A stretch of DNA of 30,130 nucleotides. Source: a virus. Its lineage: Duplodnaviria > Heunggongvirae > Uroviricota > Caudoviricetes. The stretch covers positions 1-30,130 of the IMG/VR virus record IMGVR_UViG_2778261177_000009. One strand, 5' to 3'. The notes beneath the pieces were generated by a model. The model saw only the letters and a program-made list of their open reading frames with translations, did no database searches and was not told the DNA's origin. Shown piece after piece: positions 1,256 to 9,328 of the stretch. Position 1 is the first letter of the stretch, and the number at the start of each line of letters is the position of its first letter. The position numbers and the translations under genes are program-made.

Positions 1256-1756
1256 TCACCGGGAAATTGTACCCCGCTTCGTCAGTTCATCGTACTGCCT
1301 TTCGCAGACCCTTCCGGCTTCGGCTGCCCGGTCAGCGTATTCTGCCAGTTTTCGGTTTCGTTCGAGAGATTTTTCGAACACGTCGGTAAGCAAAATTCCG
1401 GTGTCTGCGGCTGACGACCCAGCGCCGACAGTGGCGTTATACTGCCTGAGCTGCTCACGGATGGCAACGAGCTGCTGCTGCAGCCGGCCAGCGCGAGCGG
1501 CAGCATCAAGAGCATCATTGCGCGCCTGGTCGATCCTCTGCTGCGCCTCACGTTCATTGGTTGCTTTCTCCTGTTCATCATGTTGACTGGCTTTCTCATC
1601 TTCTGCTTTGCGGTCAGCCTTCGCCTGCGCATACCCGGCGTCGTACTGTCTGTCACCGTGAATATTCCAGGCTATAACGCCGCCGGCCACCAGAGCAGCA
1701 AGCATCGACACGATAAGCAACTGTTTCCAGTATGCTTTCACGAATGCCGTGATCAT
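1256..1756 (-). CDS. Rz-like i-spanin (inner-membrane spanin)
   Basis: Start taken as the internal Met (MITAFVKAYWKQLLIVSMLAALVAGGVIAW), whose ATG overlaps the endolysin stop as ATGA. N-terminal TM helix then charged coiled-coil periplasmic domain; last gene of the lysis cassette. The 211-aa form in the ORF track is an upstream extension. Confidence 0.55.
   Translation of the reverse strand: MITAFVKAYWKQLLIVSMLAALVAGGVIAWNIHGDRQYDAGYAQAKADRKAEDEKASQHDEQEKATNEREAQQRIDQARNDALDAAARAGRLQQQLVAIREQLRQYNATVGAGSSAADTGILLTDVFEKSLERNRKLAEYADRAAEAGRVCERQYDELTKRGTISR
1282..1518 (-). CDS. Rz1-like o-spanin lipoprotein embedded in Rz (+1 frame)
   Basis: Internal Met begins MMLLMLPLALAGCSSSS (lipobox LAGC) followed by a short Pro-rich peptide (PQTPEFCLP); lies wholly inside the Rz reading frame. 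Confidence 0.45.
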   Translation of the reverse strand: MMLLMLPLALAGCSSSSLPSVSSSGSITPLSALGRQPQTPEFCLPTCSKNLSNETENWQNTLTGQPKPEGSAKGSTMN

Positions 1757-2382
1757 GATGCCAGCGCCTTCTTGGCCGACAGGTAACGCACACGGCGATC
1801 GTCGATGCCATTCTGCCCGCCGTTGATGATCTGCGTGACGCGCATCAGGTCGTCGGTGTACTTCAGGCATCCATATTTCACGAAGTACCACGCCGCGCTC
1901 CGCGCTGCATACTCGTCCTGCGCCAGCAGCTCCGGCTGCTTAACCAGATCCACCTTCAAGCCGTTGCCGCAGTCGCGATAGGTGTTCAGCCCGGTGATCT
2001 GGATAAGCCCGCGCCCGCGGTAAAACCAGCCGTCTGTCGGCCCGTTATTCCCCATGCGTTTGCTGTACACCAGATTGGCAATGGCCCGCTGCCTCTCCAG
2101 TGGCAACGATGGTTCACCCTGCCGGCGCCCGAGGGAATTAGCCTGGCCCTGCGTCAGTCGCCCGGCACGGACGAAACCAGCCAGCCCCGCCACGCTGTAA
2201 TTGAAGCTCTCAACGAGCTGGGTAAAGCCAGTGCTTTCATGCCCGGCCTGGGCAATAAACATCGCCTGATCCAGCGGCTTGATGATGCCAAACTCTTTCA
2301 TGGCCGCCACAATGTGCGGATGCCAGCGCGTGGCCAGCGACAAGTTAACGCCGGCAGCTTTCTGAAACTCGTTAATGTCCAT
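1753..2382 (-). CDS. endolysin, glycoside hydrolase family 19 (chitinase-like) lysozyme
   Basis: GAGG RBS; motifs FIAQAGHESTGF ... LVYSKRMGNNGPTDGWFYRGRGLIQITG characteristic of GH19 phage endolysins; sits between holin-like genes and Rz. Confidence 0.75.
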   Translation of the reverse strand: MDINEFQKAAGVNLSLATRWHPHIVAAMKEFGIIKPLDQAMFIAQAGHESTGFTQLVESFNYSVAGLAGFVRAGRLTQGQANSLGRRQGEPSLPLERQRAIANLVYSKRMGNNGPTDGWFYRGRGLIQITGLNTYRDCGNGLKVDLVKQPELLAQDEYAARSAAWYFVKYGCLKYTDDLMRVTQIINGGQNGIDDRRVRYLSAKKALAS

Positions 2383-2677
2383 GTTGCGACCTCGATATCT
2401 TGAAGATTTGCACGACGTTGCCGCGTGTCTTCAGCACCGCGGCGAACATCACAGCATTGATAACGACCTCAGAAAGATCTGCGGTCATAGGGAAGTGGTA
2501 CAGGTATGAGTACGCGGTGCGCAGCGGGATGCTGGCCGCCGCCACGATGAGGAAATAGGCTATCCACCCGCCCCAGCGGCGATGGCGCGATCCGTTGCGC
2601 TGGAAGAACATCACCCGCAGCGCTATACCGCCGCAGATGATGGAATTAGCGATAAGCAGCAGATCATGGCCTGTCAT
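2372..2677 (-). CDS. small membrane protein, holin/antiholin-like
   Basis: GGAGG RBS; about 100 aa with 2-3 predicted TM helices; overlaps both neighbours within the lysis cassette. Confidence 0.5.
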   Translation of the reverse strand: MTGHDLLLIANSIICGGIALRVMFFQRNGSRHRRWGGWIAYFLIVAAASIPLRTAYSYLYHFPMTADLSEVVINAVMFAAVLKTRGNVVQIFKISRSQHGH

Positions 2678-3077
2678 CGTCTTTTCCTCCCGGGATTAAA
2701 TCGCGCGGATTGTCAGAGCGGTGATACAGCCATATCCCAACCCGCACCGCGACAATTGCGGCAACGAACGCGCCGGCGGAGTAGACAATGCCCCGCTCGA
2801 ACGAGTCCTGTGTGATGGTGGGGATCATGCTGGCAACGCCGATAAGGATTGATGCTGTGGGTTTGTAGAAGAGAAGACCGCAGAGAAAGCTGAGTAGCGC
2901 CAGGAGAACGCGGCGCTTGAACGGATACTCAACTGCAGAGGTAACAAAAATTACCGCCCCGGCCAGCGATCCCAGCGCCACTTCAGGAGGTACGCCGGCG
3001 ATGACTGCTGCCAGCGCACCATAGCTAAGCCCCTGATTTATTGTATCAGCGGTTAGCGATGCAGACATGATGACCAC
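2664..3077 (-). CDS. holin-like membrane protein (possible dual start GTG 3077 / ATG 3068)
   Basis: Several hydrophobic helices and a charged C-terminal tail (GGKDDDRP); first gene of the lysis cassette. A strong AAGGAGG RBS lies just upstream but is in frame with a 12-codon upstream ORF, so the exact start is uncertain. Confidence 0.5.
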   Translation of the reverse strand: MVIMSASLTADTINQGLSYGALAAVIAGVPPEVALGSLAGAVIFVTSAVEYPFKRRVLLALLSFLCGLLFYKPTASILIGVASMIPTITQDSFERGIVYSAGAFVAAIVAVRVGIWLYHRSDNPRDLIPGGKDDDRP

Positions 3078-3133
3078 CGTTTACTATGCATGATGAACCT
3101 CCTTAGTTTGGTCAGTCCATCATACACAATAAA

Positions 3134-3151
3134 CCATTTATGGATAAATGG
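3134..3151. promoter_or_regulatory. perfect palindrome CCATTTAT-GG-ATAAATGG upstream of the lysis cassette
   Basis: Exact 8-2-8 inverted repeat in the 109-bp gap before the first holin gene, near a minus-strand -10-like TATGAT (3111..3116). Confidence 0.3.
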
Positions 3152-3186
3152 TAATCATGACAAATGATCATTGAAAACGTGTTTTT

Positions 3187-3459
3187 CTATGACAATAAAA
3201 GAATTGCCTCTTCAACAACCTGCTTTCTTTTTAATAACATCGTTTCAGTAGATGCTTCATTTTCTGCATCAATATACTTGTCTTGAAGTTCAAGTATTTT
3301 TAAATCTATAGCGTCGTCACATTCAATAACTCCACTTGCTATGATTTTGTCACGTTGATTTACTTGCGCTGTAGTGATATCGCTTCCGCTCATGTTTCCA
3401 TAATAATCAACGATAGCCTTGAATAACACATCTGCCTGTTTTGCATCTGAACCAGTCAT
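3187..3459 (-). CDS. small acidic protein translationally coupled to the tailspike
   Basis: Its ATG overlaps the tailspike stop (TAATG); 90 aa, acidic, no TM helix; lies in the same AT-rich block as the tailspike C-terminal domain. Confidence 0.5.
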   Translation of the reverse strand: MTGSDAKQADVLFKAIVDYYGNMSGSDITTAQVNQRDKIIASGVIECDDAIDLKILELQDKYIDAENEASTETMLLKRKQVVEEAILLLS

Positions 3460-5870
3460 TAATTATACCCCGCTATTCTGATTTCTTTCATATAATTGTT
3501 ATTTACGTTATGTGTCATTTTAAATAACACATACCAACTATATGCAAGTCCATGTGTTTCATCTGCCATTTTTACAAAGCCAGGGGCAGTTGACCCCATT
3601 TGAGTTACTATTGTAGTGTTTTCAACTCCAGATGTAGCAACTTTTGAATTAGAAAACGCCGTGTAAGGATCTGTATTTATATCTCCGTCAAACGATATCA
3701 TCTGAATTAAACTTGCTTCAACAGTAGATCCTGCTGCTGCTGCATTCTGATCAGGTGAAATGTTAAATCTTATAAAAGCTCTTATATCATCAATAGCTTT
3801 TATATCATCTGGAACCCTCCACATGAAGTAAAGATCAACACCGTTTTTTGTTGATACTAATTTGTTAAATGTCCATGATAATGTGTCTGCTTTGTCGTTC
3901 AGAATTATTTCTGATGGTCTTAAATAAAAATATCTTCTGAACCAACCAAGAACAGTATTATTGGTTAAAAACCATGATTGCAGGTTTGTGCCACCAAAGC
4001 CTATAGATTTAGGGTTTTTATTTATTTTGTTTCCGCTTGCGTTATTATTTGCGAAATACAACTCATTTATGTATGCCCCCTTACCATGAAATGCATCAAT
4101 AACAGAGTATTTTGCACGAAGAGCGACAACATTATCAGCTGATGCAGAAATGTTTCTTATAATATTCGGCATGTTAGCATCATTATATGAATCATCAGTA
4201 TAGTAGGTGGCTACACCATTAATGCAGTCACCAACATCTATATTCTCAACAAGACAACCTTTTGCATTATTTAATAGAACCATCTCCGAAGATGCTGTAC
4301 GACCTAATTTTGCAGCTCGTAAATCTTTAAACCCACAGTTTTCTACAAAGTTTGTAGCAGCTCCTGAACCATTAATAGTTCCGGCAGTCATAGGCTTAAG
4401 TAGATCACAATCTTCAATCCAGCAATCTGTTGAGTTTGCAATAAAACCAAATGCATAATAAGTGCGAACAAGATCCGCCTTTTCAACGGTAGCACCTTTT
4501 GCAATTACATCATAACAAGATGGAGAAGAGGAAGAACTATCGTTACCAAAGTTAAACAATTGAGTCCAACCATCACCAACCACATCGAAAAATCTTATAT
4601 GCTGTGCATTAACACAATTAAATGCATAGCCTCCCCAATAGCTGGAATCAGTAAACACTGCAGACATGCGCAAGCCATAAACTTTACATTTCTCACACTG
4701 AACATAAGACTGATTATCTCTCAGGTAAGATTTCAGTGGTAACTCTGCCATCGTAGAATCAGCAACGGAAGACGGGTAATTACCGGAATTGTATGCCGCT
4801 TTTGCTTTTTTATAGTTCCATTCTCTGCCACTCCCAAAAACGAAACCACCACGACCATACATTGACAATGGGTTTATCTGTTTTACCGTAGCCCCATATC
4901 CTATAATTACAACATTGCTGGGTACGAACTGAATAAAATCAATCCAATAGGTTTTACCTGGTGTGAAATATGCTACACCGCCACCTAAAGATCGTAACCA
5001 CTCAAACATATTAAACATTTTTTTAGAATTAGCATGAGCGTCTGGCTGGGAATCAGTAATAACGCCCCATGCCTCAGGACAAGTCCACTTACCAATAAGT
5101 TGATTTAAAGATCCAGACCCTGGCATGCCCAGCAAAGACATACCAAGACCATCTTCATGAGATGCTAACTTTATTGCGAGATCTGCTGTATCTGTCATCG
5201 AAAAAACAGGTATTGGCTTTCCGTTGCTATCCCATCCTAACAACGAGTTTTTCCGAACAGATACCGGGCTTAGTTGGTCAACAGTGCTTTCTGGAACCCG
5301 TAGAGTTCTCGCAAAATTACTGTCAATCTTCTGATCAAGAATGGCATCACCAGCTTTCCAGGCATTGGTGTTGTCAACGATCTGCCCATCAACATAATTC
5401 TTCGTGGCTGCGTCCTGCGCCTGTGACGGGTCACGAAGGTTACGAATGCGGTTGTTGAGTGCGTCATAATAGTTCGCGATGAACGACGGCTTGCGCAGCG
5501 CCAGGCGTAGAAAGCTGAAACACTGCTGGATAAGCATGGTCAGCTTGTCGAACGCATCCTCATGGACCTCTGCGAAGAACTTCCCCTGGTTACGGAGGTC
5601 AGTCTCTTGGGTAACTGGGAGGTCGCGCGAGATAGAAATCTGCCATCCGTTGGCCAGCGGTGACATCAGCACGACATTCCCGCCAGAATAGGTACCCGCC
5701 CCGGTAACGGAGTAATCGGTATCCAGAGTCAGCACCGTAATATTTTCGTTAAGGTCAGCGACCTGGACGGTGAGATCTGACTTCTTGAAGATGCGGAACG
5801 TGTACGGGAAAGATGTGGTAACGCCGTTCCCTGTGTAGTCGTTATGGTCGACTTCGGTTGAGACCGTCAT
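3459..5870 (-). CDS. tailspike protein (conserved N-terminal virion-attachment domain plus beta-helix receptor-binding/depolymerase domain)
   Basis: GGAG RBS; 803 aa; N-terminus MTVSTEVDHNDYTGNGVTTSFPYTF recalled as the conserved tailspike anchor of epsilon15/phiV10-type phages; C-terminal two thirds are AT-rich with Gly/Asn/Ser-rich beta-helix-like repeats. Confidence 0.8.
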   Translation of the reverse strand: MTVSTEVDHNDYTGNGVTTSFPYTFRIFKKSDLTVQVADLNENITVLTLDTDYSVTGAGTYSGGNVVLMSPLANGWQISISRDLPVTQETDLRNQGKFFAEVHEDAFDKLTMLIQQCFSFLRLALRKPSFIANYYDALNNRIRNLRDPSQAQDAATKNYVDGQIVDNTNAWKAGDAILDQKIDSNFARTLRVPESTVDQLSPVSVRKNSLLGWDSNGKPIPVFSMTDTADLAIKLASHEDGLGMSLLGMPGSGSLNQLIGKWTCPEAWGVITDSQPDAHANSKKMFNMFEWLRSLGGGVAYFTPGKTYWIDFIQFVPSNVVIIGYGATVKQINPLSMYGRGGFVFGSGREWNYKKAKAAYNSGNYPSSVADSTMAELPLKSYLRDNQSYVQCEKCKVYGLRMSAVFTDSSYWGGYAFNCVNAQHIRFFDVVGDGWTQLFNFGNDSSSSSPSCYDVIAKGATVEKADLVRTYYAFGFIANSTDCWIEDCDLLKPMTAGTINGSGAATNFVENCGFKDLRAAKLGRTASSEMVLLNNAKGCLVENIDVGDCINGVATYYTDDSYNDANMPNIIRNISASADNVVALRAKYSVIDAFHGKGAYINELYFANNNASGNKINKNPKSIGFGGTNLQSWFLTNNTVLGWFRRYFYLRPSEIILNDKADTLSWTFNKLVSTKNGVDLYFMWRVPDDIKAIDDIRAFIRFNISPDQNAAAAGSTVEASLIQMISFDGDINTDPYTAFSNSKVATSGVENTTIVTQMGSTAPGFVKMADETHGLAYSWYVLFKMTHNVNNNYMKEIRIAGYN

Positions 5871-6327: not shown

Positions 6328-6350
6328 AAAGGCCGCAAGAGCGGCCTATC
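6328..6350. terminator. hairpin terminator between convergent genes
   Basis: Stem GGCCGC / GCGGCC with loop AAGA, T-rich sequence on both sides; overlaps the stop of the minus-strand gene 6346..7074. Confidence 0.45.
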
Positions 6351-7074
6351 GTTTCGCTTTGTGCTCATCCCAGCACGTTTTGCACCATGCCATTAAACCA
6401 TCCGCATTTTGATTATTAGGGTAAAAGCTGGTTCGTTTTCTGCGGACATTACAAATTGGGCACCACTTCATATGGCGTGTATTCTTTGGGCCATCGAGAC
6501 ACCTTGCACACCACTTAGTCAATCCATCTGGATTTTTTGACGATTTCCTGAATTTTTCATATGGAAGGTTTATTCTGCATCGCAAGCACTGCTTGCTACC
6601 ACTTGAGACTCTATTAGCTGATTCTTCTTTTGGCGGCGATACAGAAGGTATTCTTGCTGGCTCTGATACTGCCTGAGGTGCTTTTTTAGATGACTGAGAC
6701 GATATGTCATCACCAGGGAATCTTCCATGATATGCCGGAGGCGTTGACACTCCAGGTGGAAGCTCAGCTGTAAACGGCTTTGGCTGAATCAGTTGCCTCT
6801 CTTTTGCTAACTCCTGCTGTTTATAATATGTCTGGATTACCGCACTATCATAAGCAGGAGGTGCGGAAATATTAGGCGCATTACCTCCAGTTTTTTGAAA
6901 CTGAGTAGAGGTGTGTTCTATCACCTGTGTACGATTAATCGTTATCTCTCCATCTTCGGTCTTTATCGTTTTGTTATGATTAACGACCGTACGATCAGAG
7001 ATCTTAGTCTTGTTCTGGTTGATAACGTAAATAATCACCGCAACCACACCAACAACTATCCAGAAAACTTCCAT
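6346..7074 (-). CDS. membrane-anchored protein with two tandem C-x2-C-x22-C-x2-C zinc-ribbon repeats
   Basis: GAGGA RBS; N-terminal TM helix (VFWIVVGVVAVIIYVI), Pro/Ser-rich linker, then two repeats CLRC..(22)..WCARC and CPIC..(22)..WCKTC sharing a DGL-x2-WC core. Confidence 0.6.
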   Translation of the reverse strand: MEVFWIVVGVVAVIIYVINQNKTKISDRTVVNHNKTIKTEDGEITINRTQVIEHTSTQFQKTGGNAPNISAPPAYDSAVIQTYYKQQELAKERQLIQPKPFTAELPPGVSTPPAYHGRFPGDDISSQSSKKAPQAVSEPARIPSVSPPKEESANRVSSGSKQCLRCRINLPYEKFRKSSKNPDGLTKWCARCLDGPKNTRHMKWCPICNVRRKRTSFYPNNQNADGLMAWCKTCWDEHKAKR

Positions 7075-7473: not shown

Positions 7474-8130
7474 ATGAACGCTCAACTCATCCCCGTATTC
7501 AACGGCACTATATCTAACGAAACAGCCCTACTTTGTAATGCCCGCGATCTGCACGCTTTTTTAGGTGTTAAAAAGGTGTTTGCAGCATGGATTACAAATC
7601 GCATTTCAGAATACGAATTCATTGAAAATCAAGACTATATTTTGCTTTCCAATTTGGGAAAGCAAACATCTGGTAGAGGCGGCCACAACCGCAAAGAGTA
7701 CCACCTCACCCTCGATACAGCCAAAGAGCTGGCAATGGTCGAGCGTAACGAAAAAGGTCGCCAGGTGCGACGCTACTTCATTGAATGCGAGAAACGTTTA
7801 AGACAACAAGAAACAAAAGTGGAGAACGTCTTGTCAGGCTTCATGCCCGCCATTATGGAGGCGATCAAGCTGGAAGACAAAAAAGAATACAGCGCCCCAC
7901 TGAAGCCCGGCTACCGCAGCCTGATTCACTCGCCGTCTGGTGTTCTCGGCCTGACGGAGAACTCACTGCTGATGAATCTGCTGAACCAGTTACAGGACGA
8001 CGGGCACGACGTATCGGGCGCGGCGGCGGAACTGACCACCATGTTCTGCTACATCGTCGGTGTGAGCAAATGCCTGCGTAATATCCAGACACACGCGGAA
8101 TACATCAACGACAAGGCAGGGTTCTTCTGA
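7474..8130 (+). CDS. phage antirepressor-like protein, AntA-type N-terminal domain plus C-terminal domain paralogous to 6066..6323
   Basis: GGAG RBS; N-terminal region ([33 protein letters not shown] ... [35 protein letters not shown]) matches the AntA/AntB antirepressor domain from recall; C-terminal about 80 aa aligns with the LexA-box gene product. Confidence 0.7.
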
Positions 8131-8138
8131 CTGGCGGT

Positions 8139-8160
8139 GGCACAGGGATGTGCCTTTAAA
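8139..8160 (+). terminator. hairpin terminator after the antirepressor-like gene
   Basis: Stem GGCACA / TGTGCC with loop GGGA followed by TTTAAATAATT. Confidence 0.4.
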
Positions 8161-8201
8161 TAATTCTGTACAGATTGCAGACTGGGGGTGAATAGCGTAC
8201 T

Positions 8202-8218
8202 ATTACCTTAAAGGTAAA
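8202..8218. promoter_or_regulatory. TTACC-N5-GGTAA palindrome, site C (ATTACCTTAAAGGTAAA)
   Basis: Core 15-mer identical to site B; 42 bp upstream of the start of the two-gene operon at 8260. Confidence 0.5.
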
Positions 8219-8259
8219 CCTGTTTTTATTTTATACCTGTAACTTACCGGAGATTAAAG

Positions 8260-8586
8260 ATGACAAAACTTGGATTCGTGATGAGAGGTCCGGTAAGAAG
8301 CGGAACTCATGCAAAGCGTAGCAAGAGTCGTATTTTTACTGGTAAGGTTGTAGCACGTAAATCAGCTATTGGCTCGTTCAATAGTGAAAATGCGGCATTG
8401 CGCCATATTTTTATCAGCACAAAGCCAAGAGCATCCGCTGATGTGCATACAATGTCTATTCCTATCACAAAGAGTATAAAGCGGATAAAAAAGCTCTCAT
8501 CTGCAGAATCAAAAGAGATATCTTTCCGCCAGCTTAACTCATTAGAAACGCATATGAAGGAAGAGGAATTCGATGTTTTTGAGTGA
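8260..8586 (+). CDS. small basic protein, first gene of a two-gene operon (candidate antitoxin/regulator)
   Basis: GGAG RBS 7 nt upstream; Lys/Arg-rich N-terminal half and acidic C-terminus (EEEFDVFE); overlaps the downstream gene by 14 nt; AT-rich. Confidence 0.45.
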   Translation: MTKLGFVMRGPVRSGTHAKRSKSRIFTGKVVARKSAIGSFNSENAALRHIFISTKPRASADVHTMSIPITKSIKRIKKLSSAESKEISFRQLNSLETHMKEEEFDVFE

Positions 8587-9085
8587 GTATAGCGGGAAGG
8601 TTATACCTACTGGTGAGTTTAAAACTGATGACTTTCTGATTTCGCTAAAAGATGCTTTTAAACAACACTGGCGTCATGGTCATCATCCTGATCTGGGAAA
8701 AGATACTCTTTTTGAAAGACCAGACGAAGTATTAGGTTTCCATCTCAGAAAGGTTCATGTCAATATTGGTGAATATGCATCATATTCATACTCATGTACT
8801 GAACAGTGTTGGGATGAGTGGTCATACGGATTGATTGATGAACAAGGAAATTACAGGCCAAAACCAACCAGTAACGCATATCTCATATATGCAGTCAATG
8901 AAATAAGAGATGCAGCCTTACTAGCTTATTGGGACCCGCCCGCACACACCAAAGCTAACGCAAAAGTTTGGATGGATTCCGTATTGAATTTCACAAAATT
9001 ATTTCATGAACGAACGAATACAGCTCCACTTAGTAGAAATGTTTATCCGTGGGATTATTCGTACAAATCCAAAAAGCCTGCATAG
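8573..9085 (+). CDS. hypothetical protein, weak collinear similarity to YafO-family toxins (candidate toxin or abortive-infection effector)
   Basis: AGGAAGAGGAA RBS inside the upstream gene; by eye three collinear blocks resemble E. coli YafO (GKDTLF vs GRDALY; RKVHVNI vs ERVAHIH; AYLIYA..AALLAY vs AHLVYC..AWLLIA); His-rich motif HWRHGHHPD; AT-rich. Confidence 0.5.
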   Translation: MFLSEYSGKVIPTGEFKTDDFLISLKDAFKQHWRHGHHPDLGKDTLFERPDEVLGFHLRKVHVNIGEYASYSYSCTEQCWDEWSYGLIDEQGNYRPKPTSNAYLIYAVNEIRDAALLAYWDPPAHTKANAKVWMDSVLNFTKLFHERTNTAPLSRNVYPWDYSYKSKKPA

Positions 9086-9166
9086 TAGTTTTTTATGGAC
9101 GAAACAAAAGTCAGTGCTACACTCATTGACGCCACATTGAGGTGGCTTATAGATGGAAATTTCACA

Positions 9167-9328
9167 ATGAAAAAAGCATTTGCTGCACTGTTCGTTTTAT
9201 TGTCTCTGGTAGCTTCAACTCAGGCCTTTGCTGGTCGTTGTCAGCACGACAGCGACACTGCTGCTGACGGCTCCCGCTGCGGTGGGCGTTCTGCGGATTC
9301 CCGCCCGGGCGGCGGTGGCATTCGTTAA
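9167..9328 (+). CDS. possible small secreted Cys-containing peptide
   Basis: Internal Met begins a classic signal peptide MKKAFAALFVLLSLVASTQAFA followed by a 31-aa Gly/Arg/Asp-rich peptide with two Cys; weak RBS and no plus-strand terminator, so coding status is uncertain. Confidence 0.25.
   Translation: MKKAFAALFVLLSLVASTQAFAGRCQHDSDTAADGSRCGGRSADSRPGGGGIR

Follow-up and report, generated by a model that had tools for sequence, protein, structure and literature searches.

A likely two-gene host-range cassette, a depolymerase-type receptor-binding module with a coupled 90-residue gene, in a phiV10-like prophage of Escherichia coli

The window analyzed here is the whole 30,130-nucleotide (nt) stretch of IMG/VR virus record IMGVR_UViG_2778261177_000009 (positions 1 to 30,130), which holds a phiV10-like (Uetakevirus) prophage adjoining yfgI in E. 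coli; its start is E. coli chromosome (yfgH, yfgI), and the remainder is prophage. The subject of this study is the tailspike gene of the prophage together with the 90-codon gene that directly follows it, hereafter the small gene. In the tailspike, the anchor of the phage backbone is followed by an enzymatic receptor-binding module (receptor-binding domain, RBD) that is AT-rich and foreign. The evidence moderately favors the interpretation that this module and the small gene form a two-gene host-range cassette that was inserted into the prophage.

Exchange of tailspike modules is the main route by which such phages change host. Modular tailspikes, in which a conserved N-terminal anchor carries an exchangeable enzymatic RBD, have been described in epsilon15/phiV10-like and other Enterobacteriaceae phages (Latka et al. 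2019, PMC6872550; PMC10408124). Mosaic tailspikes and shuffled depolymerase domains are therefore already well known, and the swap itself is ordinary. What was not found described is the obligate two-gene cassette, the apparent terminase ancestry of the partner, and its presence in invertible host-range switches. Open reading frames (ORFs) of the 90-residue kind are listed by Latka et al. merely as hypothetical proteins (PMC6872550), and a literature search found no paper addressing them. The features referred to below are as follows (window coordinates).

3459..5870, minus strand: tailspike ORF, 803 amino acids (aa) (ORF list)
5387..5870, minus strand: particle-binding anchor of phiV10/epsilon15 (Uetakevirus) type, codons 1-161 (backbone composition, homology)
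5157..5386, minus strand: neck or linker of Klebsiella-prophage type, intermediate GC, codons 162-238 (homology)
3462..5156, minus strand: AT-rich receptor-binding/enzymatic module, codons 239-803 (homology, model)
4050..4600, minus strand: divergent patch within the beta-helix, residues ~423-607 (sliding identity to prophage L015)
3457..3461, minus strand: TAATG stop/start overlap of the tailspike and small ORFs (sequence read)
3187..3459, minus strand: small gene, encoding a 90-aa acidic protein (phrog_19895) with four predicted helices (ORF list, PHROG, model)
3078..3186, minus strand: AT-rich spacer between the small gene and the holins (GC 0.33; 95.5-96.5% identical to L015)
2388..3077, minus strand: two holin genes (Phage_holin_8, Phage_holin_3_7), GC ~0.57-0.62 (Pfam)

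Composition of the tailspike gene

The GC content of the tailspike gene is 0.506 over codons 1-242 and 0.372 over codons 243-803. It is 0.355 in the small gene and 0.33 in the spacer (3078-3186), against 0.492 for the whole window, and the lowest values of the 30-kb window are reached by the 400-nt windows across 3200-4200 (0.335-0.36). At third codon positions the GC content (GC3) drops from 0.62-0.73 over codons 1-165 to 0.15-0.37 from codon 180 to the end. The step thus lies at about codons 165-180 (window ~5330-5380), matching breakpoints of DNA similarity at 5386-5390. The original prediction, made from the letters of the window, had described some 190 codons of typical composition (from about 5300) followed by an AT-rich remainder; the step is real, but it falls earlier in the gene than was read by eye. 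In siphoviruses the RBD module is AT-rich as well (0.36-0.39 vs 0.45 in the flanks, with 0.30 in the small ORF), and the core of RBD plus small gene looks foreign in every lineage examined.

AT-richness could in principle be a by-product of the amino-acid composition of beta-helices, in which case no foreign origin would be needed; Asn, Ser, Thr, Ile, and Tyr are indeed abundant in beta-helix spikes. However, the steepest fall is at third codon positions (GC3 from ~0.68 to ~0.25), the AT-richness reaches into the small gene and the non-coding spacer, and identity to Klebsiella prophages is 96.5-100% in the tract against ~57% in the anchor. The fall in GC3 and the identity of the tract already refute this explanation, which is left with practically no probability.

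Junctions and extent of the imported tract

The two ends of the tailspike have different relatives: those of the N-terminus are phiV10-type E. coli phages, and those of the C-terminus are Klebsiella phages. Neither a uniform GC content nor a shared set of homologues for both halves was seen. The anchor DNA is 77-79% identical to phiV10-type phages and, from 5386-5388, 89-92% identical to the alleles of this locus in other E. coli prophages. Residues 1-165/240 are matched by many PHROG tail families, and the anchor matches the Dpo31/Dpo36 N-terminal domain in the PDB (E 1e-24).

By use of the 90-aa protein, three Klebsiella pneumoniae prophages (L013-L015) were located. The window from 2388 to ~5390, comprising the holins, the spacer, the small gene, the RBD, and the neck, is 96.5-100% identical to these prophages at the DNA level (L015), and this identity collapses to ~57% in the anchor. 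The neck DNA is 97-99.5% identical to L015. The holin DNA is 96.5-100% identical to L015 but only 72-75% identical to other E. coli alleles of the prophage. Because the holins combine Klebsiella-like GC with low identity to the E. coli alleles, the latest exchange must have involved ~3 kb and extended beyond the AT-rich core. Hence the proposal that an accessory gene was brought in together with the module holds insofar as the two are always co-inherited, but the latest tract (2388-5390) also contains two GC-rich holin genes.

Within the gene, the mosaic has two junctions, not the single junction between anchor and RBD that had been expected. The first, between anchor and neck, is located at about codon 161 in a conserved hinge (~codons 125-161). 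Residues 125-238 are those of a K. pneumoniae prophage fiber (P0116) save for one I/V change, and the RBD of P0116 is unrelated; residues 135-248 match the neck of the KN1 depolymerase 9m4c. The second junction, between neck and RBD, is at residues ~239-243, where the neck ends in ...DLAIKLAS and the module continues with HEDGLG; homology to the RBDs of other phage families begins at 233-243. In the patch at 4050-4600, sliding identity to L015 is 0.71-0.85 between flanks of 0.99-1.00, which suggests a second, intragenic recombination inside the beta-helix relative to the Klebsiella prophage allele. Such a recombination might alter substrate contacts.

At the same site, sister alleles of the prophage in E. 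coli carry other spikes: one has an SGNH hydrolase spike without a downstream gene, one has a GH28-related spike with an unrelated ORF of 98 aa behind it, and one (L006) has another beta-helix spike followed by GtrA and a glycosyltransferase fragment. Their DNA similarity to the window picks up again at 5386-5388. The structural region of the window is 97% identical to phiV10 and to O157 typing phages 9 and 10. The locus therefore resembles other modular Uetakevirus tailspikes, in which a backbone anchor carries a foreign beta-helix, SGNH, GH28, or other beta-helix allele, with exchange inside the conserved YYDALNNRIRNLRDP...ATKNYVD hinge. It differs from the usual case in that few E. coli genomes carry the window allele, whose source is the Klebsiella gene pool, and in that the tract also brings the neck, a small partner gene, and holins. 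The cassette is carried by 5 of 5,426 complete E. coli genomes, every time at the yfgI locus.

Family and fold of the receptor-binding module

The RBD has homologues in many phages (34-73% identity, 86-94% coverage, hidden Markov model (HMM) scores of 600-860 bits) and matches phrog_14442 (E 2e-229). Over residues 243-803, amino-acid identity reaches 72-73% with fibers of the Klebsiella siphovirus KpnS_VR6602 and of Roufvirus pYD38-A and pIS4-A. It is 42-44% for the relatives in JD001, KPV811, and the Klebsiella myovirus prophage L016, and 34-37% for those in Webervirus, Przondovirus, Taipeivirus, and Gamaleyavirus. These homologues bear many different N-terminal domains, including PF18668, PF09008, PF03906, and PF27114. 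Two acidic residues, E350 and D444, never vary within the family, and a third, E529, hardly does.

A sequence search of the PDB found no solved structure for the RBD. Its AlphaFold2 model (predicted local distance difference test score, pLDDT, 90.6) comprises a helix cap (~275-294), a right-handed beta-helix (~298-652), and a C-terminal beta-sandwich (~663-802). The best PDB matches of this model in Foldseek are phage tailspike depolymerases (probability 1.0, ~10% identity), including the Depo32, HK620, K2-2, KP32gp38, and CBA120 spikes. The model terminates in the beta-sandwich, and the 803-aa protein has no match to the intramolecular chaperone Peptidase_S74 (PF13884). Taken together, the GC3 step, the identity to Klebsiella-prophage DNA, the homologues, and the beta-helix model bear out the earlier view that a receptor-binding/depolymerase module was horizontally acquired.

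Homology places the RBD among the capsule depolymerases of the Klebsiella K57/K68 type. The characterized relatives, Dep_kpv79 from a Jedunavirus and Dep_kpv767 from a Przondovirus, hydrolyze the Klebsiella K57 capsule as specific beta-galactosidases (PMC7693772), and in DepoCatalog the K57/K68 group, with 30-40% identity, covers lytic and temperate phages as well as podo- and myoviruses (PMC13385381). The comparison of the window protein with the K57 enzymes was made through family members other than Dep_kpv79 and Dep_kpv767. The homology extends over the full length of the enzymatic and C-terminal domains (34-44% with JD001, KPV811, KWBSE43-6, and Przondovirus; 72% with KpnS_VR6602), the same beta-helix and beta-sandwich are predicted, and podo-, myo-, and siphoviruses have all exchanged the module. 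Here, in contrast, the host is E. coli, and the substrate may differ, since identity is only ~35-44% to those family members that stand nearest to the characterized enzymes. The RBD adds a member carried by E. coli to a depolymerase family known from Klebsiella. A beta-helix with an O-antigen lyase or hydrolase site had been anticipated; the beta-helix is indeed predicted, but the closest characterized relatives degrade the K57 capsule and not O-antigen (PMC7693772).

Standalone bacterial proteins of ~430 aa from Rahnella and others (P0107-P0111), with GH28-related annotation, are 35-38% identical to about half of the RBD. Since these proteins share this half, the enzymatic core exists outside phage spikes too.

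Linkage of the small gene to the receptor-binding module

As had been noticed from the letters, the small gene begins on the tailspike stop (TAATG): the junction sequence (...GGGTATAATTAATGACTGGT...) confirms that the TAA stop and the ATG start have one base in common. In every locus examined that holds a small gene of this family, about 45 contexts, a member of the RBD family stands directly 5' of it; the two ORFs overlap by one base (-1) or are 0 to +3 nt apart, save for a few cases with ambiguous start calls. The cassette is present in at least seven unrelated phage lineages. The small gene follows the RBD in Roufvirus, Jedunavirus, Drulisvirus, Taipeivirus, and Gamaleyavirus phages, in a Bonnellvirus-like contig, in Uetakevirus-like prophages of E. 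coli, Klebsiella, and Pantoea, and in myovirus prophages, for which the upstream genes were confirmed by HMM. No locus has the small ORF without such an RBD. Among the 55 assessable viral RBD loci, the small gene is present in 29 and absent from 26. Because the small gene never occurs without the RBD, while the RBD often occurs without the small gene, a functional dependence is plausible, and this asymmetry is the strongest point in its favor.

Genes that directly follow a fiber gene are familiar from other phages. Mu U/U', P1 U, and P2 gpG are fiber assembly proteins, and the Mu G and P1 C segments are invertible. The small gene resembles such genes (Mu U/U', P1 U, P2 gpG, and lambda Tfa; Caudo_TAP) in its position directly after the spike gene, in being exchanged with the variable part, and in pairing with one RBD family.

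Two kinds of prophage add to this resemblance. In Klebsiella myovirus prophages L016-L018, as with Mu U and P1 U, a relative of the small gene lies beside a variable fiber part within an invertible segment, which is bounded by inverted repeats and flanked by a Din-family invertase gene. In L016 (region L016:3655-8871), the repeats GTAAACCTGGGTTCAAAC are at 4272-4301 and 8117-8146, with the core TAAACCTGGGTT. The segment holds a promoterless RBD (42% identical from residue 233) with its small gene, facing the expressed spike C-terminus and an unrelated 85-aa gene. The crossover site falls in VNLGSN codons that align to residues 233-238 of the window tailspike. The segment is predicted to switch the spike between two cassettes of RBD plus small gene, one of them of the family studied here. 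A remnant invertase crossover site was also sought in the window, and none was found. In the P2-like prophage L101 (L101:1-5475), the RBD gene follows the baseplate genes V-W-J-I in the gpH slot, the small gene occupies the slot of gpG, and a second, conventional tail-fiber gene comes next. In L016-L018 and L101 alike, the resemblance to the layouts of assembly genes is one of position only.

Other spikes are also closely trailed by small ORFs. Those at L005:4520-4816, L010:1463-1762, L016:6295-6552, and L073:4091-4375 encode 85-99 aa (98, 99, 85, and 94, respectively); they belong to phrog_1443 and phrog_18037 or, in two cases, to no family, and are mutually unrelated. The small ORFs after tailspikes in these four loci and in L050 and L072 were compared with the 90-aa family as candidate relatives and proved unrelated. 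Spike genes directly trailed by a small gene may be a widespread arrangement that has escaped study.

Properties and probable origin of the 90-residue protein

The 90-aa protein matches phrog_19895 (E 3.5e-30), which has no assigned function, and the PHROGs search gave only this uncharacterized family. A word-indexed search of 5.8e9 proteins returned 55 clusters. An exhaustive HMM search of 1.84e9 representatives returned 18 proteins, all standalone and 56-97 aa long, with neither fusions nor distant relatives. The named sources are Klebsiella, Escherichia, and Pantoea. Since the ratio of nonsynonymous to synonymous substitution rates (dN/dS) is 0.06-0.41, the ORF is a real gene under purifying selection; its length and the motifs Y19, C47, D52, and Q59 are conserved. 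The AlphaFold2 model has four helices (pLDDT 87.6). Domain searches of the Pfam/NCBI type with the protein and 41 relatives returned nothing, even at E up to 10, a PDB sequence search with the family profile gave nothing meaningful, and Foldseek of the model against the PDB and BFVD matched only the family's own member from KWBSE43-6. Neither a membrane segment nor a signal peptide nor an enzyme domain is found in the protein.

In the L020/L040 lineage, near-identity to the window stops in the middle of the small ORF (window 3317, codon ~47, in the I-x-C-D-D motif): the N-terminal half goes with the RBD, and the C-terminal half (~50% identical) goes with the downstream DNA. As this junction falls inside the ORF, chimeric small proteins evidently survive.

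The 90-aa family is probably homologous to the T7-type small terminases (TerS) of the Bonnellvirus/Waewaevirus type, as a diverged paralogue. In the Bonnellvirus-like contig (L048:1739-6449), the RBD, the small gene, a T7-type TerS gene, and the large terminase (TerL) gene follow one another in this order. The TerS is genuine (PF11123, 61.7 bits; phrog_891), and this is the only place where the small gene stands beside its presumed ancestor; the small gene is an extra gene there. Aligned to this TerS, the 90-aa family profile covers 79 columns with 92% probability. Against an alignment of five TerS sequences, hhalign gives 95.8% probability (E 6.8e-9) over 79 collinear columns; the score of 50.3 is above the maxima of 17.7 for 40 column shuffles and 34.7 for 40 seven-column block shuffles, and above the 12.8 of the reversed alignment. 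In Lidtsur, J8-65, and LIMEzero, the TerS gene starts 1-9 nt after the tailspike gene.

The small protein thus resembles T7-type small terminases (PF11123, DNA_Packaging_2; phrog_891) in its length, its all-helical nature, and its slot after the tailspike. It differs in that a basic insertion of ~12 residues in TerS is absent from the 90-aa family and in that its matches are below Pfam/PHROG thresholds. No TerL gene follows it (in the window, the next genes are holins), and it occurs in phages with unrelated packaging enzymes, including the window prophage, which has terminase genes of its own; the terminase genes annotated in phiV10-type phages match the structural region of the window, away from the small ORF. 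The T7 gp18-type TerS (phrog_1351) shows no relation to the 90-aa family by hhalign (0.3% probability).

Possible role of the 90-residue protein

Based on these observations, the following sequence of events can be proposed. The trimeric spike would bind and hydrolyze a capsule-like polysaccharide or an O-polysaccharide and so set which E. coli strains can be adsorbed. The small gene would descend from a small-terminase gene located right after the tailspike gene in T7-like podoviruses (Bonnellvirus, Waewaevirus), would have shed the basic insertion of the terminase, and would have been kept as the cognate partner of the RBD. Translational coupling would make the partner in step with the spike, and the 90-aa protein would aid maturation of the spike or its assembly onto the particle, being useful but not indispensable. 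RBD-linked assembly is our leading guess for its role. That the protein is an exapted small-terminase paralogue dedicated to one depolymerase family is a tentative reading that we put forward as possible. Such a partner would be a new class of trans-acting accessory of receptor-binding proteins, either a factor in spike maturation or attachment or a minor component of the spike.

Several points weigh against this proposal as a whole. Single sequences of the 90-aa family fail to match PF11123 or phrog_891, even at E 1-10, and a fold search with the 90-aa model gives no TerS match; the putative terminase link comes from profile-profile comparison. In Pfam, the PDB, and BFVD, the protein has no sequence or fold similarity to known fiber chaperones; unlike Tfa proteins, it is all-helical and, at 90 aa, much smaller. 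The chaperone role suggested in the original prediction is therefore conjectural, and the protein looks more like a diverged paralogue of a small terminase. Unlike tail-fiber assembly genes, it is dispensable in several RBD lineages: the small gene is missing mostly from the Przondovirus and Webervirus region of the RBD tree and has been lost here and there outside it, and no recognizable substitute or disguised homologue was found at RBD loci without it. Produced in E. coli by themselves, Dep_kpv79 and Dep_kpv767 showed activity (PMC7693772); carriage of the small gene by KpV79 is not confirmed, and KpV79 is not among the near matches to a JD001 query in the phage collection. Strict synteny could also arise from linkage and not from function. 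Because some lineages lack it and the recombinant enzymes are active alone (PMC7693772), the small gene would more likely be helpful than essential.

The same facts lend themselves to another explanation, namely that the small gene is a hitch-hiker, a terminase-derived remnant beyond which the junctions happen to fall, with any function unrelated to the spike (e.g., DNA binding or regulation). The remote TerS homology and the ancestral adjacency of tailspike and TerS genes fit it well, as do the persistence of the RBD without the small gene in many lineages, the activity of family enzymes expressed alone (PMC7693772), and the fact that recombination junctions can fall inside the small gene (codon ~47 in the L020 lineage). 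Yet a mere remnant would hardly retain a dN/dS of 0.06-0.41 across deep divergence together with its length and motifs, nor would it be expected in phages whose terminases are unrelated to that of T7. In none of the ~45 contexts does the small gene stand apart from the RBD, it switches with its RBD in the invertible segment, and its tight translational coupling is maintained across lineages. We therefore regard hitch-hiking as unlikely, although it deserves to be kept in mind.

A further explanation starts from the TerS-like profile match without the basic insertion. The 90-aa protein would be a terminase decoy, a late TerS mimic that hampers packaging by T7-like phages competing for the same capsule type. 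Since Przondovirus and Drulisvirus podoviruses share this RBD family, they are rivals for the same hosts. However, this idea is purely speculative. The TerS type resembled (Bonnellvirus/Waewaevirus) differs from the Przondovirus type, as the hhalign result for the T7 gp18 type also indicates; the small gene is also present in podoviruses with a TerS of their own (L048, KPV811); and late expression from a prophage protects no lysogen. We consider a decoy very improbable.

The original prediction had named a conversion function as one possibility for the downstream gene, and the slot between tailspike and lysis genes does hold conversion genes in the sister allele L006 (GtrA and a glycosyltransferase fragment). 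A moron for lysogenic conversion or superinfection exclusion is, however, difficult to reconcile with a protein that has no transmembrane segment, signal peptide, or enzyme domain, and whose ORF overlaps the stop codon of a late structural gene. Moreover, the small gene is found in virulent Drulisvirus, Gamaleyavirus, Taipeivirus, Jedunavirus, and Roufvirus phages. Being a predicted soluble four-helix protein without domain matches, the 90-aa product also differs from the O-antigen conversion morons (GtrABC, Oac). A conversion or exclusion function is accordingly judged very unlikely, a shade below the decoy.

Significance of the cassette

The window documents a recent transfer from Klebsiella to E. 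coli (or the reverse) at a near-identical DNA level and with mapped junctions. For phage engineering and the production of depolymerases, the size of the swappable unit, one gene or two, is of practical importance. Should the 90-aa protein indeed improve maturation or attachment of the spike, it belongs in designs for RBD swaps and with recombinant K57/K68-type enzymes. Descent from a small terminase, if true, would be an unusual recruitment of a packaging protein to a host-recognition module. With 18 representatives in 1.84 billion proteins, this is a small family, and it is genetically easy to test.

Other features of the window

Beyond the small gene, 3' of the tailspike gene, come the spacer, the two holin genes, and a GH19 endolysin gene. 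Between the small ORF and the holin genes a terminator was looked for, and no terminator-like site was found. The lysis cassette (window 1753-3077) is itself mosaic, with the GH19 endolysin in the window and a CHAP-domain enzyme at the same place in the Klebsiella prophages.

A second AT-rich island is located at window 8200-9200 (GC 0.38-0.39), where a 108-aa ORF overlaps a 170-aa ORF. The latter is a YafO-family toxin according to RefSeq, with a weak Pfam match (19.7 bits, below the cut-off), and the island is probably a toxin-antitoxin moron. The 242-aa protein encoded at window 6346-7074 (phrog_6762) combines a hydrophobic stretch in its N-terminal part with Cys-rich repeats in its C-terminal part, and these repeats weakly match the endonuclease VII, Lar-like, and Stc1 zinc-ribbon families; the protein is kept in all sister alleles of the prophage.

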